From: a phage
Assembly (NCBI GenBank): GCA_021683455.1
Contig: GCA_021683455.1_3051.1
Direction: 5' to 3' (one strand)
DNA length: 64,000 bases
The notes below the pieces were generated by a model, which had not been told where the DNA came from, ran no database searches, and worked only from the letters and a program-made list of their open reading frames with translations. Shown piece after piece: positions 2,800-13,152 of the stretch (the stretch's first letter is position 1; every line of letters begins with the position of its first letter). A program made the translations under genes and the position numbers.

Positions 2800-4365
2800 A
2801 TGACTATCAAAACTAAAGCTGAACTTTTGAACAAATGGAAGCCATTACTGGAAGGTGAAGGTTTACCGGAAATTGCTAATAGCAAACAAGCGATTATCGC
2901 TAAAATCTTTGAAAACCAGGAAAAAGATTTCCAGACAGCTCCGGAATATAAAGACGAAAAAATTGCTCAGGCATTCGGTTCTTTCTTAACAGAAGCTGAA
3001 ATCGGTGGTGACCACGGTTACAATGCTACCAACATCGCTGCAGGTCAGACTTCTGGCGCAGTAACTCAGATTGGCCCAGCTGTTATGGGTATGGTACGTC
3101 GTGCTATTCCTAACCTGATTGCTTTCGATATTTGCGGTGTTCAGCCGATGAACAGCCCGACTGGTCAGGTATTCGCACTTCGTGCGGTATATGGTAAAGA
3201 CCCAATCGCTTCCGGCGCTAAAGAAGCATTCCACCCAATGTATGGTCCAGATGCAATGTTCTCTGGTCAGGGTGCTGCTAAGAAATTCGCTGCTTTGAAA
3301 GCAAGTGATACTCTTGAAGTTGGAACTATTTACACCCACTTCTTCCAGGACACTGGTACTGTGTATCTGCAAGCTACAGAAGCTAAACAAATTGATTCAG
3401 GCGCATCTGACGCAGCTAAATTAGATGCTGAAATTAAGAAACAAATGGAAGCAGGTGTACTGGTAGAAATCGCTGAAGGTATGGCTACTTCTATCGCTGA
3501 ACTCCAGGAAGGTTTTAACGGTTCTACCGATAACCCATGGAATGAAATGGGCTTCCGTATCGATAAGCAAGTTATCGAAGCTAAATCTCGTCAGCTGAAA
3601 GCTGCTTACTCTATTGAATTAGCACAAGACCTCCGCGCTGTTCATGGTATGGATGCTGATGCTGAACTGTCTGGTATTCTGGCTACCGAAATTATGCTGG
3701 AAATCAACCGCGAAGTTGTTGATTGGATTAACTACTCCGCTCAGGTTGGTAAATCTGGTATGACCCTGACTCCGGGTTCTAAAGCTGGTGTATTCGACTT
3801 CCAGGACCCAATCGATATTCGTGGTGCTCGCTGGGCGGGTGAATCCTTTAAAGCTCTGTTGTTCCAGATTGACAAAGAAGCAGTTGAAATTGCTCGTCAA
3901 ACCGGTCGTGGTGAAGGTAACTTCATTATCGCTTCCCGTAACGTAGTTAACGTTCTGGCTTCAGTTGATACCGGCATTTCTTATGCTGCACAAGGTCTGG
4001 CTACCGGCTTTAACACTGATACTACCAAGTCAGTATTTGCTGGTGTTCTGGGTGGTAAATACCGTGTATATATCGACCAGTATGCTAAACAGGATTATTT
4101 CACTGTAGGTTATAAAGGTCCGAACGAAATGGATGCTGGTATTTACTACGCTCCATATGTAGCTCTGACTCCACTGCGTGGTTCTGATCCGAAGAACTTC
4201 CAACCGGTAATGGGGTTCAAAACTCGTTACGGTATCGGTATCAACCCATTTGCAGAATCCGCTGCTCAGGCTCCGGCTTCTCGCATTCAGAGTGGTATGC
4301 CTTCTATCCTGAACAGCCTTGGTAAGAACGCTTACTTCCGCCGTGTATATGTTAAAGGTATCTAA
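2800..4365 (+). CDS. 23: major capsid protein gp23
   Basis: 521-aa ORF, length and sequence character of the T4 major head protein; strong GC-poor codon bias of a highly expressed late gene; followed by a terminator hairpin. Confidence 0.95.
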   Translation: MTIKTKAELLNKWKPLLEGEGLPEIANSKQAIIAKIFENQEKDFQTAPEYKDEKIAQAFGSFLTEAEIGGDHGYNATNIAAGQTSGAVTQIGPAVMGMVRRAIPNLIAFDICGVQPMNSPTGQVFALRAVYGKDPIASGAKEAFHPMYGPDAMFSGQGAAKKFAALKASDTLEVGTIYTHFFQDTGTVYLQATEAKQIDSGASDAAKLDAEIKKQMEAGVLVEIAEGMATSIAELQEGFNGSTDNPWNEMGFRIDKQVIEAKSRQLKAAYSIELAQDLRAVHGMDADAELSGILATEIMLEINREVVDWINYSAQVGKSGMTLTPGSKAGVFDFQDPIDIRGARWAGESFKALLFQIDKEAVEIARQTGRGEGNFIIASRNVVNVLASVDTGISYAAQGLATGFNTDTTKSVFAGVLGGKYRVYIDQYAKQDYFTVGYKGPNEMDAGIYYAPYVALTPLRGSDPKNFQPVMGFKTRYGIGINPFAESAAQAPASRIQSGMPSILNSLGKNAYFRRVYVKGI

Positions 4366-8771: not shown

Positions 8772-9452
8772 TTATTTTAATGTTACGAAAGAAGAATTGC
8801 GTGTTTCACGAATTAAAACTGATCCGTCGCGATTAATGTAATAAATTAAGCTAAACAAAGTTTGGTGTGCTGACGCGTGTTCAAAACTAGTTGGATGAGA
8901 TTTCCAATCAGGAGTTTCAGCGATCCATTGATAAATCCACCAAGGAACCGTACAGAATCCTGGATTTTTCCCCAATAATTGAAGATTCGGGCTAAAGTTT
9001 TCCGGAAGAGTAAATACAGACGGCTTTTCAGATTCAATAATCTCAGCTACAGCTTGTTCAAACTTTTCTTCAACAAAAGGAGTGTCTTCAATCAAAACGT
9101 CAGTATTTTCAGGAATTTTATCCGTTTCTACCACTTCAATTTTAATATCAGATTTAACTGGAGAATCAATCAGAAGTGCTGCTTCTGGATTAACTTCTTC
9201 ATCGTCATATTTTAATCCCTCTGCAGCATCAGCAGCATCAATTAAGTCTTTAATAGATAACCCATCAGTCTCTGGCATAGGTTCACTAGCGAGCTTCTGG
9301 AGGGCTTCTTCAATATCAACAACGATATTATCAAAAGATTTATTCTTTTTGACCTTTATACCAAACTGTTCAGCGTATTCAGCTAATTTAGCTTTAGCTT
9401 CTTTATTATCATCAAGAGCCTTCAGCTCTGCAATATAATCTTTATCTATCAT
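8772..9452 (-). CDS. inh: Inh, inhibitor of prohead protease (hoc.1 position)
   Basis: 226-aa ORF immediately upstream of hoc on the same strand; length and synteny as in T4. Confidence 0.65.
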   Translation of the reverse strand: MIDKDYIAELKALDDNKEAKAKLAEYAEQFGIKVKKNKSFDNIVVDIEEALQKLASEPMPETDGLSIKDLIDAADAAEGLKYDDEEVNPEAALLIDSPVKSDIKIEVVETDKIPENTDVLIEDTPFVEEKFEQAVAEIIESEKPSVFTLPENFSPNLQLLGKNPGFCTVPWWIYQWIAETPDWKSHPTSFEHASAHQTLFSLIYYINRDGSVLIRETRNSSFVTLK

Positions 9453-9466
9453 AATATTTCCTCAGT

Positions 9467-9474
9467 ATAAATAT
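9467..9474 (+). promoter_or_regulatory. late promoter TATAAATA upstream of GIY-YIG endonuclease gene and uvsW
   Basis: Exact TATAAATA about 28 nt upstream of the ATG at 9502. Confidence 0.55.
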
Positions 9475-9501
9475 AGATATATTTATTACTCGGAAAATAG
9501 T

Positions 9502-10119
9502 ATGTACCACTTTGTATATGAAACAACAAATCTAATAAATGGTAAAAAGTATATAGGAAAACACTCTACTGATGACTTGAATGATGGTTACCTTGGTTCC
9601 GGTAAGGCAATTCAGCAGGCTATAAAGAAATATGGTGAAAACAATTTCTCTAGAACAATACTAAAAGAGTTTAAAACTTCTGAAGAAGCGTACATGTATG
9701 AAGAAGAAATTATAACTCCTGAACTAATAAAAAGCAAAAATTATTATAATATGAAACCTGGTGGAATTGGTGGAATTGTTATGACTACAGAGGTTATAAC
9801 AAAGATGAAAGAATCTTCCGCTAAAAGATTTGAAAACTCACCAGGCACGGTATTAGGTAAAACTTGTTACACTAATGGAACTAAAAATATTTTTATTAAA
9901 CCTGGAGAACTTGTTCCAGAAGGATTTGTAAAAGGGATGGTTCATCCTAATAGAAAGTCCAGAAAAGGATGTAAAGTCAAACCGACTACCACAGGAACTT
10001 TTTGGGTCAATAATGGCGCAATAAATAAATTAATACAACCAGACGGTATTATTCCCGACGGATTTATTAAAGGTCGTCTCATGAAAAGAGATTCTAAAGG
10101 CAAATTTAGTAAGGCATAA
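9502..10119 (+). CDS. GIY-YIG family homing endonuclease (SegE-like position between inh and uvsW)
   Basis: 205-aa ORF with N-terminal GIY-YIG module (HFVYETTNLINGKKYIGKHST...GSG), basic C-terminal DNA-binding region. Confidence 0.75.
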   Translation: MYHFVYETTNLINGKKYIGKHSTDDLNDGYLGSGKAIQQAIKKYGENNFSRTILKEFKTSEEAYMYEEEIITPELIKSKNYYNMKPGGIGGIVMTTEVITKMKESSAKRFENSPGTVLGKTCYTNGTKNIFIKPGELVPEGFVKGMVHPNRKSRKGCKVKPTTTGTFWVNNGAINKLIQPDGIIPDGFIKGRLMKRDSKGKFSKA

Positions 10120-10121
10120 TT

Positions 10122-11630
10122 ATGGATATTAAAGTACATTTTCACGACTTCAGTCATGTACGCATCGATTGTGAAGAGAGCACGTTCCACGAATTAAGAG
10201 ATTTCTTTTCGTTTGAGGCCGATGGATATAGATTTAACCCTCGCTTCAGATATGGCAACTGGGATGGACGAATCCGTCTTTTAGATTATAATCGCCTTCT
10301 TCCATTCGGCTTAGTCGGGCAAATTAAAAAGTTCTGTGATAACTTTGGCTATAAAGCCTGGATTGACCCACAAATTAACGAAAAAGAAGAATTATCAAGA
10401 AAAGATTTTGATGAATGGCTTTCTAAATTAGAAATCTATTCAGGAAATAAAAGAATTGAACCACACTGGTATCAAAAAGATGCAGTGTTCGAAGGATTAG
10501 TTAATCGTCGTAGAATTCTTAATCTTCCAACATCTGCAGGTAAATCTTTAATTCAGGCTCTGCTTGCGCGATATTATTTGGAAAATTATGAAGGTAAAAT
10601 TCTTATCATTGTTCCAACAACTGCTCTAACAACTCAGATGGCTGATGATTTCGTTGACTATCGTTTATTCAGTCATGCAATGATAAAGAAAATCGGTGGT
10701 GGAGCATCAAAAGATGATAAATATAAAAATGATGCACCAGTCGTTGTTGGTACATGGCAAACTGTAGTAAAACAACCAAAAGAATGGTTCTCACAGTTTG
10801 GAATGATGATGAATGATGAATGTCATCTTGCTACAGGAAAAAGTATTTCATCTATCATATCAGGTTTAAATAACTGTATGTTCAAATTTGGTCTATCTGG
10901 TTCATTACGTGATGGCAAAGCCAATATCATGCAGTATGTTGGAATGTTTGGCGAAATATTTAAGCCAGTAACGACTTCTAAGTTAATGGAAGATGGACAA
11001 GTAACTGAGCTAAAAATTAATAGTATTTTTCTTCGTTATCCTGATGAGTTCACTACTAAATTAAAGGGAAAAACTTACCAAGAAGAAATAAAAATTATTA
11101 CGGGGCTTAGTAAAAGAAATAAATGGATCGCTAAATTAGCTATTAAGCTTGCGCAAAAAGATGAAAACGCTTTTGTCATGTTTAAACATGTATCGCACGG
11201 TAAAGCTATTTTCGATTTAATTAAAAATGAATACGATAAAGTTTATTACGTATCAGGGGAAGTTGATACCGAAACCCGCAATATAATGAAAACCTTAGCT
11301 GAAAATGGTAAAGGAATAATTATAGTAGCTAGTTATGGTGTATTTTCTACTGGTATTTCAGTTAAAAATCTGCATCACGTTGTTTTAGCGCACGGTGTTA
11401 AATCAAAAATCATTGTATTACAAACAATCGGTCGTGTATTACGTAAGCATGGTTCTAAGACAATAGCAACTGTCTGGGACCTCATAGATGACGCGGGCGT
11501 AGTTTCTAAATCAAAAACATCTTCTAAAAAATACTCGCATTTAAACTATCTTTTAAAACATGGACTTGATCGTATTCAGCGTTATGCTGATGAAAAGTTT
11601 AATTATGTGATGAAAGAGGTTAAACTTTGA
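10122..11630 (+). CDS. uvsW: UvsW RNA-DNA and DNA-DNA helicase
   Basis: 502-aa ORF; SF2 helicase motifs (Walker A PTSAGKS, DEAH-like MNDECH); length as in T4 UvsW. Confidence 0.9.
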   Translation: MDIKVHFHDFSHVRIDCEESTFHELRDFFSFEADGYRFNPRFRYGNWDGRIRLLDYNRLLPFGLVGQIKKFCDNFGYKAWIDPQINEKEELSRKDFDEWLSKLEIYSGNKRIEPHWYQKDAVFEGLVNRRRILNLPTSAGKSLIQALLARYYLENYEGKILIIVPTTALTTQMADDFVDYRLFSHAMIKKIGGGASKDDKYKNDAPVVVGTWQTVVKQPKEWFSQFGMMMNDECHLATGKSISSIISGLNNCMFKFGLSGSLRDGKANIMQYVGMFGEIFKPVTTSKLMEDGQVTELKINSIFLRYPDEFTTKLKGKTYQEEIKIITGLSKRNKWIAKLAIKLAQKDENAFVMFKHVSHGKAIFDLIKNEYDKVYYVSGEVDTETRNIMKTLAENGKGIIIVASYGVFSTGISVKNLHHVVLAHGVKSKIIVLQTIGRVLRKHGSKTIATVWDLIDDAGVVSKSKTSSKKYSHLNYLLKHGLDRIQRYADEKFNYVMKEVKL

Positions 11631-12319
11631 ATTATAAATTAATATATGATAATTTAATTAATAGAGCCCAGAATCGGGCTCGCCTTAATGGATACACTGA
11701 AACACATCATATAATTCCTAGATGTATGGGTGGTACAAATGATAAGTGTAATTTAGTAGAACTAACGGCTGAAGAACATTTTATAGCCCATAAACTTTTA
11801 GCTAAAATTCATCCAAACCATTACGGTATAATTAAAGCTGTTATATGTATGGGGATGAATTCAAATACTCATGAAAGACATGTTAATAAATCTTACGCAT
11901 GGGAACGTCGTAAAATGGCAGAACTTCAATCCGGCGAAGGTAATCCATTTTACGGAAAACACCATACGGAAGAACATAAACAATATATGTCAAAACTCAT
12001 GAAAAGTCGTCCAATTACATGGGGAAATAAAATTAGTAAAACTAAAAGAATGAACCCAACGAAATGGACTGAAGAAGCTAAAAGATTACATTCAATCAAT
12101 CAATCGGGTAAAAATAACGGCATGTATGGAAGGAAACATTCTGCTAAATCTATTCAGAAAATTAAAGATAACATGCCAGATAATTCAGGAGCTAATAACC
12201 CAGCTGCTAAACCTATAGAAGTAAATGGTGTTAAATATAAATGTATGAAAGATGCTTCTAAAGCTACTGGATTATCAATGTACAAACTAAGAATACTTAG
12301 AAAAACAGTTAATTTATAA
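11624..12319 (+). mobile_element. free-standing HNH homing endonuclease gene inserted between uvsW and uvsW.1
   Basis: Intergenic endonuclease ORF at a position that I recall as a direct uvsW/uvsW.1 junction in T4. Confidence 0.6.
11627..12319 (+). CDS. HNH homing endonuclease with NUMOD-like C-terminal repeats; probable TTG start
   Basis: 230-aa ORF; HNH motif HHIIPRCMGGTNDKCNLVELTAEEHFIAH; repeated GK/RKHxxE/S motifs (NPFYGKHHTEEHKQYMSK, NGMYGRKHSAKSIQKIKD); in-frame stop at 11621-11623 leaves TTG at 11627 as the only start that keeps the N-terminus; overlaps the uvsW stop TGA. Confidence 0.8.
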   Translation: MNYKLIYDNLINRAQNRARLNGYTETHHIIPRCMGGTNDKCNLVELTAEEHFIAHKLLAKIHPNHYGIIKAVICMGMNSNTHERHVNKSYAWERRKMAELQSGEGNPFYGKHHTEEHKQYMSKLMKSRPITWGNKISKTKRMNPTKWTEEAKRLHSINQSGKNNGMYGRKHSAKSIQKIKDNMPDNSGANNPAAKPIEVNGVKYKCMKDASKATGLSMYKLRILRKTVNL

Positions 12320-12331
12320 GGGCTTCGGCCC
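12320..12331 (+). terminator. stem-loop (GGGC-TTCG-GCCC) between HNH gene and uvsW.1
   Basis: GC stem with TTCG tetraloop followed by T-rich tract. Confidence 0.45.
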
Positions 12332-12332
12332 T

Positions 12333-12578
12333 TTGGAGAAAAAGATGTTACTAGAATTTAAACAATTTCTTTATGAAGCTTCTATTGATGAATTTATGGG
12401 TAAAATTGCCTCTTGTCAAACATTAGAAGGTTTAGAAGAACTTGAAGCTTATTATAAGAAAAGAGTCAAAGAAACTGAATTAAAAGATACTGATGACATC
12501 TCTGTGAGAGATGCTTTGGCAGGAAAAAGAGCTGAATTAGAAGATTCAGACGATGATGAAGTAGAAGAAAGCTTTTAA
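12333..12578 (+). CDS. uvsW.1: UvsW.1-like small acidic protein
   Basis: 81-aa ORF downstream of uvsW, acidic C-terminus; synteny. Confidence 0.6.
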   Translation: MEKKMLLEFKQFLYEASIDEFMGKIASCQTLEGLEELEAYYKKRVKETELKDTDDISVRDALAGKRAELEDSDDDEVEESF

Positions 12579-12657
12579 ATTAAAAAAGGCCCAACCGAAA
12601 AGGAAGGGCCAAAACTATAGACTAAAGGTCACACTATAGCAAAAGTTGTGTTTCATT

Positions 12658-12801
12658 TAATTGTTCTTCCGAACTTTCTGAAACTGGTAGTTCTTTAATG
12701 TAATTATAGCAAGGCCCAGGATGTACAGGACCTTTGTCTGTTTCAACAACCAATGCAGAATCGATTGGAGTTTTACAGACAACACAAATCTTATCTGACA
12801 T
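12658..12801 (-). CDS. small Cys-containing hypothetical protein (47 aa)
   Basis: ATG at 12801 preceded on minus strand by TATAAATA; sequence MSDKICVVCKTPIDSALVVETDKGPVHPGPCYNYIKELPVSESSEEQ; below the ORF-track size cutoff. Confidence 0.3.
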
Positions 12802-12826
12802 GATTGTCTCCTCTGAATTATATATC

Positions 12827-12834
12827 TATTTATA
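12827..12834 (-). promoter_or_regulatory. late promoter TATAAATA (minus strand) upstream of small ORF 12658..12801
   Basis: Reverse complement of 12827..12834 is TATAAATA, about 25 nt upstream of the ATG. Confidence 0.45.
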
Positions 12835-12924
12835 ACCCCATCTTAAAGCGCATTTCTTGTACACGCTTTAAACATGCTTCCATTTCTGCTAAAAGTCTAA
12901 ATACTTCTTTATAATTTGTCATAT

Positions 12925-13152
12925 TTACCCCATATCTCTCATATGCATATCAATGCCCATATCTTTAGAATAAAAATATTCATCAAGATATCCGGCAAAT
13001 TTTCCTTTAATATAAAGGACATCTTCACCACACGGGTGGTCGGCCAGGATACGAATATCCTGACGCTTAAGATTATGCTTTTTCATTAAGAATTGAATTT
13101 CCGTTTCAAATTCTTCTTCATAATTAAAAGCATCATCAATGCTATATCTCAT
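12925..13152 (-). CDS. hypothetical protein (uvsY.-1 position)
   Basis: 75-aa ORF, start overlaps uvsY stop region; synteny. Confidence 0.5.
   Translation of the reverse strand: MRYSIDDAFNYEEEFETEIQFLMKKHNLKRQDIRILADHPCGEDVLYIKGKFAGYLDEYFYSKDMGIDMHMRDMG

Follow-up and report, generated by a model that had tools for sequence, protein, structure and literature searches.

How a complete endonuclease gene can occupy the junction of two genes that lie only 25 nucleotides (nt) apart in related phages was the question raised by a stretch of phage DNA from the assembly GCA_021683455.1 (contig GCA_021683455.1_3051.1). The whole stretch of 64,000 nt, hereafter the window, was assigned from its sequence to a T4-like (Tequatrovirus) genome, and the best database record for its first 24 kb was at most 97.7% identical. 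Between the helicase gene uvsW and the small gene uvsW.1, it contains an open reading frame (ORF) of 230 amino acids that starts with TTG. Our analysis indicated that this ORF is very probably a free-standing Mob-type HNH homing endonuclease gene (HEG), carried on a cassette of ~0.8 kb that lies inside the last codons of uvsW. Comparison among phages supported this reading through the anatomy of the insertion, the sporadic presence of the gene at a fixed site, a linked tract of divergent uvsW sequence in three lineages, purifying selection on the gene, and the conservation of its start position together with a 4-nt overlap with uvsW.

The boundaries of the insertion were defined by comparison with HEG-less T4-like phages. 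In two of these genomes (L014 and L015), the end of uvsW reads TACGTA ATG AAA ACA GTT AAT TTA TAA and is followed by GGGCTTCGGCCC, TTTGGAGAAAAAG, and the ATG of uvsW.1. The 3′ terminus of uvsW in the window is GTT AAA CTT TGA (TGA at 11628–11630), and the window rejoins the empty-site sequence at 12302 (AAAACAGTTAATTTATAAGGGC; AAAACAG), a point within the endonuclease ORF that is read in the frame originally used by uvsW. From 12302 onward, the window matches the empty site of both HEG-less genomes without a difference, and because identity resumes there in the uvsW frame, the endonuclease, with the C-terminal sequence RKTVNL*, ends on the ancestral tail of uvsW and its stop. The ORF accordingly has no stop codon of its own and borrows the ancestral TAA of uvsW. 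We had started from the view that the gene fills the gap between uvsW and uvsW.1; the alignments replaced it with an insertion within the last ~5 codons of uvsW and not in an intergenic gap, with a substitute tail and stop supplied to uvsW. The absence of the gene from T4 and its position between the two genes, both part of the original prediction, were confirmed by the spacing of only 25 nt in HEG-less T4-like phages. The interval first proposed for the gene, 11621–12332, does contain the ORF, but its right end takes in the native GGGCTTCGGCCC hairpin at 12320–12331. The substitute tail (11610–11630) and the ancestral tail (12299–12319) constitute an imperfect 21-nt direct repeat flanking the element. 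In PSD2002, the right repeat copy, ATGAAACAGGTGGATTTATGA, corresponds to the RB69-type empty site with 21 nt shared, and in MT446411 the direct repeat is perfect over 18 nt, AATTAAACAGGTGGAAAT.

The junction into which the gene was inserted differs among genera. uvsW and uvsW.1 overlap as ATGA in most non-T4 genera (L004, L008, L037, and L039; HEG-less L017–L023), and in the endonuclease carriers outside the T4 type, the borrowed stop retains the ATGA overlap with uvsW.1, so that three genes are linked in succession by overlaps of 4 nt. In T4-type phages, uvsW and uvsW.1 are separated by the 25-nt spacer, which contains a UUCG hairpin and a Shine-Dalgarno (SD) sequence, GGAG.

The distribution of the gene was sporadic. 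The gene flanks were found in 502 phage records, and far from being conserved at this locus in all T-even genomes, the endonuclease gene was present in 49 of these records. It was absent from T4, the RB relatives of T4, and most others (~90% of relatives), and clean empty sites were seen in T4 and other T4-like phages. The carriers include T6, Yersinia phage PST, G28, G8, ACG-C40, HY03, and UFV-AREG1; the records of T6 and PST annotate the same 693-nt coding sequence (CDS), which implies the TTG start. Orthologues 50–70% identical to the window protein were found in eight further lineages, all between uvsW and uvsW.1, and the identity of the endonucleases across the nine lineages at this junction ranged from 50 to 85%. 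All full-length copies listed or retrieved overlap the uvsW or helicase CDS. In phage BF15 (L035, 401–1089), the gene has lost 4 nt and its annotated CDS is truncated to 195 amino acids, which may represent a decaying copy or a sequencing error.

The sequence of uvsW next to the gene was itself divergent. uvsW was 97–100% identical to T4 up to ~11440 and identity was 100% again directly after the insertion, whereas the last ~140 nt of the window uvsW were only 62–84% identical to T4; 60-nt windows starting at 11468 and 11498 gave 62–65%, and those starting at 11528 and 11558 gave 82–84%. The proximal ~70 nt and the recoded tail co-occurred with the endonuclease gene in all sampled records. The more distal patch was usually linked to the gene but was found without it in Escherichia phage OES_C-2 (L033, 1500–1760), a HEG-less recombinant that has the patch (11490–11543), T4-type sequence from 11544, and an empty site. 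OES_C-2 represents either recombination beside the cassette or an independent polymorphism of the distal patch; segE is also absent from this phage. When the last 201 nt of uvsW were compared with the window, 49 records were at least 95% identical, 306 were at most 90% identical, and four were intermediate. The size of the upper class (49) equals the number of HEG-carrying records, and the sampled rows agreed with this split.

The same one-sided pattern was present in three independent pairs of HEG-carrying and HEG-less phages. In addition to the window, L004 was 67–83% identical to the HEG-less L021 over the last ~260 nt of uvsW, and L008 was 72–90% identical to the HEG-less L017 over the last ~170 nt, with 100% identity downstream in both pairs. 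A search for a common foreign origin of these HEG-linked tracts pointed to no single donor, the tracts being 60–77% identical to one another and no closer than HEG-less alleles. A linked tract on one side of the gene is the classical hallmark of free-standing homing endonucleases that target an adjacent conserved gene, and we infer from it that the target is likely to lie in the uvsW 3′ end of HEG-less phages or across the insertion point.

The assignment of the start codon was examined in relation to uvsW and to the orthologues. Relative to uvsW, the ORF occupies the −1 frame, in which TAA (11621–11623) is followed by ACT and then by TTG (11627–11629), the last of which overlaps the uvsW stop as TTGA (11627–11630). 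The homologues all begin with MNY(K/Q/R/E)x(I/H)Y, and the TTG of the window aligns with Met1 of the family. At the same position, TTG is used in the window type, PSD2002, MT446411, and L039, GTG in L037, and ATG in L008, Rgz1/L010, L038, and L040. The original prediction that the N-terminus can be retained only with the TTG start at 11627 was thus upheld by the upstream TAA, by the MNY alignment, and by the ATG, GTG, or TTG at the same codon of the orthologues. The earliest in-frame ATG is codon 34 (CMGG), which lies beyond the HH dipeptide (residues 27–28) and therefore gives no ATG-initiated product with an intact HNH motif. TTG was read directly in the window and seven other copies, and a 56-nt junction was 100% identical in 39 of the 49 records, the other 10 having one mismatch (in ZN18 at codon 7, not in the TTG). 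In all nine lineages, the start overlaps the stop of uvsW by 4 nt (NTGA), as translational coupling predicts; on the basis of this conserved overlap, the coupling to uvsW and the start assignment both appear well supported.

The strength of the SD sequence varied with the start codon. GAGG or AGGTGG occurs 5–7 nt upstream of the start in all four TTG lineages (predicted anti-SD duplex, −5.9 to −6.5 kcal/mol), whereas no strong SD sequence precedes the start in the ATG and GTG lineages (−1.0 to −3.0 kcal/mol). In the window, GAGG lies 7 nt upstream of TTG (−6.5 kcal/mol, compared with +0.4 for the T4-type tail) and is created by a Thr-to-Glu recoding of the uvsW tail. The final Leu codon of uvsW could be TTA, which would give ATGA, so that the coding of uvsW does not force TTG. 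Because a strong SD sequence accompanies TTG only, the inverse relation suggests a tuned level of expression in place of the deliberately weak one first proposed. On the matrix of endonuclease identities, the start-codon states were intermingled: the window protein is nearest to ATG and GTG lineages (66–70%), and PSD2002 and MT446411 are nearest to an ATG lineage (74–75%). The association between TTG and the SD sequence is therefore probably not one of pure common descent, although nine lineages are too few for firm statistics.

To evaluate selection, we compared TTG-started copies from the window, T6, PST, G8, ZN18, UFV-AREG1, and HY03. The ratio of nonsynonymous to synonymous substitution rates (dN/dS) was 0.04–0.08 where more than 10 substitutions were available, with dS up to 0.18. 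These data show that the gene is under purifying selection, and it is apparently functional.

The predicted product was a Mob-type nuclease with an N-terminal HNH domain, two NUMOD3 motifs, and an I-TevI-like DNA-binding end. The initial description of a 230-residue HNH protein with NUMOD-like repeats was borne out by the HNH core, by Pfam NUMOD3 (PF07460; 51.8 bits versus a cut-off of 20.4, in two stretches), and by PHROGs (phrog_655 'homing endonuclease'; E = 3.9e-60 over residues 1–217). The NUMOD3 stretches are GEGNPFYGKHHT at residue 103 and GKNNGMYGRKHS at residue 161. In an alignment of 57 homologues, Y3, H28, P31, G36, N42, L46, E50, H51, H55, L58, and G110 were invariant, and the residues characteristic of the HNH superfamily were present, namely the His general base at the end of strand 1, the Asn of strand 2, and the metal-binding His of the helix. 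A profile of this alignment searched against the PDB aligned the pattern ErHHIiP..GG.d..N.v.L....H to the HNH motif of McrA (6ghc; E = 4e-4) and also matched the HNH motifs of a group II intron maturase (6me0; 1e-3) and Cas8f-HNH. The AlphaFold2 (AF2) model has strands at residues 25–28 and 43–46 and a helix at residues 48–61, with a predicted local distance difference test (pLDDT) score of ~96. Pfam also gave a weak I-TevI DNA-binding match, and the I-TevI DNA-binding domain (1i3j) was matched by the single sequence (E = 0.0059) and by the profile (1e-08) and was the top Foldseek match. Among 120 listed homologues examined for Pfam matches, 93 had NUMOD3 (PF07460) and 24 had none; PF01844 was precomputed in P0071 only.

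The gene is already annotated in GenBank as a homing endonuclease, in some records wrongly. The label 'group I intron endonuclease' (G28, G8, and G2540-3) was rejected, since no Rfam group I intron was present, the HNH/NUMOD3 ORF directly abuts uvsW and uvsW.1, and the TIGR01453 match was below threshold (30 bits versus a cut-off of 56) and confined to the C-terminal DNA-binding half.

Transcription of the gene seems to depend on its neighbors. The nearest exact T4 late-promoter consensus on the + strand lies upstream of segE (Table 1), and no exact TATAAATA was found on the + strand between 9474 and 12400; given this absence, the gene looks like a promoter-less cassette in a segE–uvsW–HEG–uvsW.1 unit. 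A promoter of its own was considered and rejected, as there was no exact late motif from 9474 and the scan for sigma-70-type promoters gave fewer matches than it did in shuffled sequence. Two near-consensus late-promoter motifs are located inside the ORF, TATAAATT at 11633–11640, just past the start and unconserved in the orthologues, and TATAAATG at 12236–12243. Promoters embedded for downstream genes have been described for other Seg and Mob genes, and TATAAATG, ~100 nt upstream of uvsW.1, could similarly be an embedded promoter of uvsW.1. RNA hairpins that sequester the SD sequence and start codon have been described for I-TevI and mobE. A regulatory hairpin of this kind over the SD sequence and TTG was rejected here: the predicted local structure was weak, unrelated hairpins dominated, and no common structure was present in the orthologues.

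Taken together, the cassette consists of a recoded 3′ stretch of uvsW (~70–140 nt), the replacement tail of uvsW (MKEVKL), which has its own TGA and the GAGG SD sequence, and the stop-less endonuclease ORF running through the ancestral KTVNL tail to the ancestral TAA. The gene would be cotranscribed with segE, uvsW, and uvsW.1, probably late in infection, and ribosomes that end uvsW at TGA, or that are bound at GAGG, may initiate at the overlapping TTG. By analogy with Seg and Mob enzymes, the product would cut or nick the uvsW 3′ end of a HEG-less phage in a mixed infection, and repair from the HEG-carrying genome would copy in both the gene and the recoded part of uvsW next to it; the recoded tract and the insertion itself would shield the carrier from cleavage. 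We advance with more reserve, as a possibility that falls somewhat short of probable, a specific form of this model: a 'seamless' insertion into a translationally coupled pair that kept a uvsW–nuclease–uvsW.1 chain, followed by several independent start-codon switches, with selection holding a set level of expression and not a mere minimum, and with the target in the last ~90–250 nt of uvsW.

Several observations weigh against a homing endonuclease mobilized in this way. The late timing and reinitiation are inferred steps of the model. Full-text literature searches retrieved no paper on the gene and no biochemical or genetic data on cleavage, a target site, or homing. Pfam HNH (PF01844) was below threshold (16.2 bits versus a gathering score of 21.4; E = 0.012), which suggests that the family as a whole scores poorly against that model, and whole-model fold searches recovered no HNH endonuclease convincingly. 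The divergent tract could be a hitch-hiking mosaic polymorphism, its distal half being present without the gene in OES_C-2. Finally, divergence of the endonuclease was correlated with that of UvsW across lineages (r = 0.64), which also fits long vertical residence. On this last basis, the gene could be a domesticated resident of the uvsW/uvsW.1 junction, inherited vertically since before the genera of Tevenvirinae split, mostly lost, and kept where it is useful, either in excluding co-infecting relatives or in a DNA-binding or regulatory role. The presence of orthologues at precisely this junction in nine lineages, the correlation with UvsW, the strong purifying selection (dN/dS ~0.05), and the ATGA coupling relay to uvsW.1 kept in most genera all agree with such residence. 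However, presence and absence switch between genomes with flanks that are 98–100% identical, the boundaries are sharp, and a foreign-looking uvsW tract of 62–84% identity is attached to the gene. This pattern, seen in three lineages, points to recent lateral acquisition by recombination and not to ancient vertical inheritance with later loss. Exclusion of competitors is, moreover, a known consequence of homing endonuclease activity, and to that extent the two explanations overlap. We consider long residence as a domesticated gene unlikely.

The remaining alternatives concern the TTG codon. In E. coli, TTG initiates more weakly than ATG, and a copy in which ATG had mutated to TTG might be an unexpressed relic, silent or decaying; the ATG of some orthologues and the truncated CDS of BF15 would fit such decay. 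The low dN/dS among the six intact TTG copies, with dS to 0.18, is nevertheless incompatible with a pseudogene, four divergent lineages have retained TTG, all of them with a strong SD sequence 5–7 nt upstream, and 39 of the 49 junctions are identical, making a silent relic very unlikely. It is even less probable that TTG is not used at all and that the −1 frame of the ORF, overlapping the uvsW end, yields a UvsW–nuclease fusion by −1 frameshifting or a shorter protein from Met34. The TAA at 11621–11623 leaves 7 nt (11624–11630) for frameshifting, and no slippery heptamer occurs there or in the orthologues; the Met34 product would lack Y23, E25, H27, and H28, residues with little or no variation across the family; and both versions disagree with the ATG or GTG found at the same codon in orthologues. 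A TTG-initiated, mobile HNH endonuclease gene was therefore retained as the preferred explanation.

Table 1. Positions of the features of the uvsW–uvsW.1 region in the window
Feature	Position	Strand	Details
HNH homing endonuclease ORF, 230 aa, TTG start	11627..12319	+	TTG 11627–11629; TAA 12317–12319
Substitute uvsW tail borne by the cassette, ATGAAAGAGGTTAAACTTTGA (MKEVKL*)	11610..11630	+	GAGG 11616–11619; TAA in the HEG frame 11621–11623; TTGA 11627–11630
Ancestral uvsW tail, (AGA)AAAACAGTTAATTTATAA	12299..12319	+	KTVNL*, the end of the endonuclease ORF; right copy of the direct repeat
Distal divergent uvsW patch	11490..11543	+	VVSKSKTSSKKYS versus T4 VKPKSANTKKKYV; 62–65% identity, 100% just upstream
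Proximal uvsW tract	11544..11609	+	~10 substitutions versus HEG-less alleles, mostly third-position synonymous; candidate immunity/co-conversion tract
HNH (beta-beta-alpha-metal) nuclease core, residues 23–59	11693..11803	+	Family-invariant H28, N42, H51, H55
Two NUMOD3 DNA-binding motifs	11933..12175	+	PF07460, E = 7.6e-14; start at residues 103 and 161
I-TevI-like C-terminal DNA-binding region	12095..12298	+	Second NUMOD3, short strands, helix-turn-helix-like end
uvsW helicase gene, 502 aa	10122..11630	+	Carries the insertion at its 3′ end; Pfam UvsW_N 8.3e-44, ResIII, DEAD, Helicase_C
Native T4-type spacer, outside the insert	12320..12344	+	UUCG-tetraloop hairpin GGGCTTCGGCCC 12320–12331; uvsW.1 SD sequence GGAG 12335–12338; identical in HEG-less L014 and L015
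uvsW.1, 77 aa	12345..12578	+	PF11637 5.8e-29; 100% identical to T4 directly 3′ of the insertion
T4 late-promoter consensus TATAAATA upstream of segE	9466..9473	+	Nearest exact + strand motif upstream of the endonuclease gene

The gene was then compared with known systems. In their review of the mobile elements of T4, Edgell, Gibb and Belfort (2010; PMC2988022) described promoter-less cassettes among the Seg and Mob genes, seven of them in T4, and proposed coupling through the overlapping stop and start UAAUGA for mobE and nrdA; the coupling suggested for the window gene thus follows established thinking. The 15 endonuclease sites that the review lists for T4 do not include the uvsW/uvsW.1 junction. 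The product shares with the T4 Mob family (MobA–E) the N-terminus MNYxxIY and the HNH core ETHHIIPRCMGG...NLV.LT.EEH, and it is 44% identical to MobB over residues 1–122 (E = 3e-26), with the same MNY start. Within the HNH core, a 62-nt stretch (11696–11757; nt 70–131 of the ORF) was 93.5% identical in DNA sequence to T4 mobB, which could be due to patchy gene conversion between paralogous endonuclease genes or to strong constraint. As with the T4 Mob genes, the window gene is promoter-less, lies between conserved genes of the same orientation, and has a mobE-like overlap of start and stop. It differs from them in its site at the uvsW 3′ end, in a C-terminal half composed of two NUMOD3 motifs and an I-TevI-like domain, and in an ORF that ends on the tail and stop codon of the host gene; it also starts with TTG and not with AUG.

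The C-terminal ~70 residues match the DNA-binding domain of I-TevI (1i3j), the GIY-YIG endonuclease of the T4 td intron. This domain is modular, has been shuffled between nuclease families, and includes a NUMOD3-like element. Unlike I-TevI, the window protein has an HNH catalytic domain and is not intron-borne. SegE of T4 is likewise encoded by a free-standing homing endonuclease gene adjoining uvsW, between inh and uvsW, and targets uvsW of HEG-less relatives (PMC2988022); it differs from the window protein in belonging to the GIY-YIG family, in its location at the uvsW 5′ end in an intergenic position of its own, and in its ATG start. In the window, segE (9502–10119; GIY-YIG, 205 amino acids) is 98–100% identical to T4 and directly upstream of uvsW, so that this phage has a homing endonuclease gene on either side of uvsW, the two being different. 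The mobE gene within the split nrdA of Aeh1 ('genes in pieces') resembles the present case in that an HNH endonuclease gene lies inside a coding region and the host function is preserved, whereas the window element displaces and replaces only the last ~5 codons of uvsW and leaves UvsW unsplit.

The element is of an ordinary and already annotated kind and leaves the general understanding of homing elements unchanged; the new details are the anatomy of the insertion and the pattern of start codons and SD sequences. It extends the known homing-endonuclease loci of T-even phages by an uncharacterized site, the uvsW 3′ end, and provides an example of how an endonuclease may be embedded in a host operon without damage, with the displaced codons replaced, the ribosome-binding site derived from the C-terminal codons of the host gene, and the stop codon borrowed. 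The model also predicts localized marker exclusion around uvsW in crosses of T6-type with T4-type phages, which would be relevant to phage recombination mapping and to the design of phage cocktails. In addition, the misleading database labels 'group I intron endonuclease', 'mobD/MobE', and 'uvsW-A/uvsW-B' can be corrected.

Annotation of the locus was inconsistent across databases. The T4 RefSeq genome NC_000866 (L003, 6180–6200) has TTTAATAAGCTTCGGCCC where T4-like genomes and positions 12310–12331 of the window have TTTATAAGGGCTTCGGCCC; this difference in the GC hairpin is an old error that fuses uvsW and uvsW.1 into a 587-residue CDS and is still in the reference. The T6 record MH550421 (L001, 1724–3231) splits uvsW into two CDSs, uvsW (1724–2821) and 'uvsW-B' (2887–3231), which suggests a frameshift or sequencing error, and uvsW.1 is labelled 'uvsW-B' or 'DNA helicase' in other records. 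The possibility that the separation of uvsW from uvsW.1 is itself a scar of the element was rejected, as the UvsW.1 homologues were all small and stand-alone, without fusion to a helicase. Neither the 75 word-indexed matches nor the 27 matches from an exhaustive HMMER search (1.84 billion representatives) included a UvsW–UvsW.1 fusion; the few longer proteins among the HMMER matches carry the domain N-terminally.

With regard to other features of the region, inspection of both strands at the endonuclease locus revealed no antisense ORF longer than 49 amino acids, a scan of 9300–13000 gave no Rfam family at the gathering score, and no paralogue of the endonuclease gene was found within the window. 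A hairpin, GGCCC-AACCGAAAAGGAA-GGGCC, is located at 12588–12610 between the convergent genes uvsW.1 and uvsY.-2 and was missed by a simple terminator scan. It corresponds to the conserved bidirectional terminator reported 3′ of uvsW.1 (PMC1524935).

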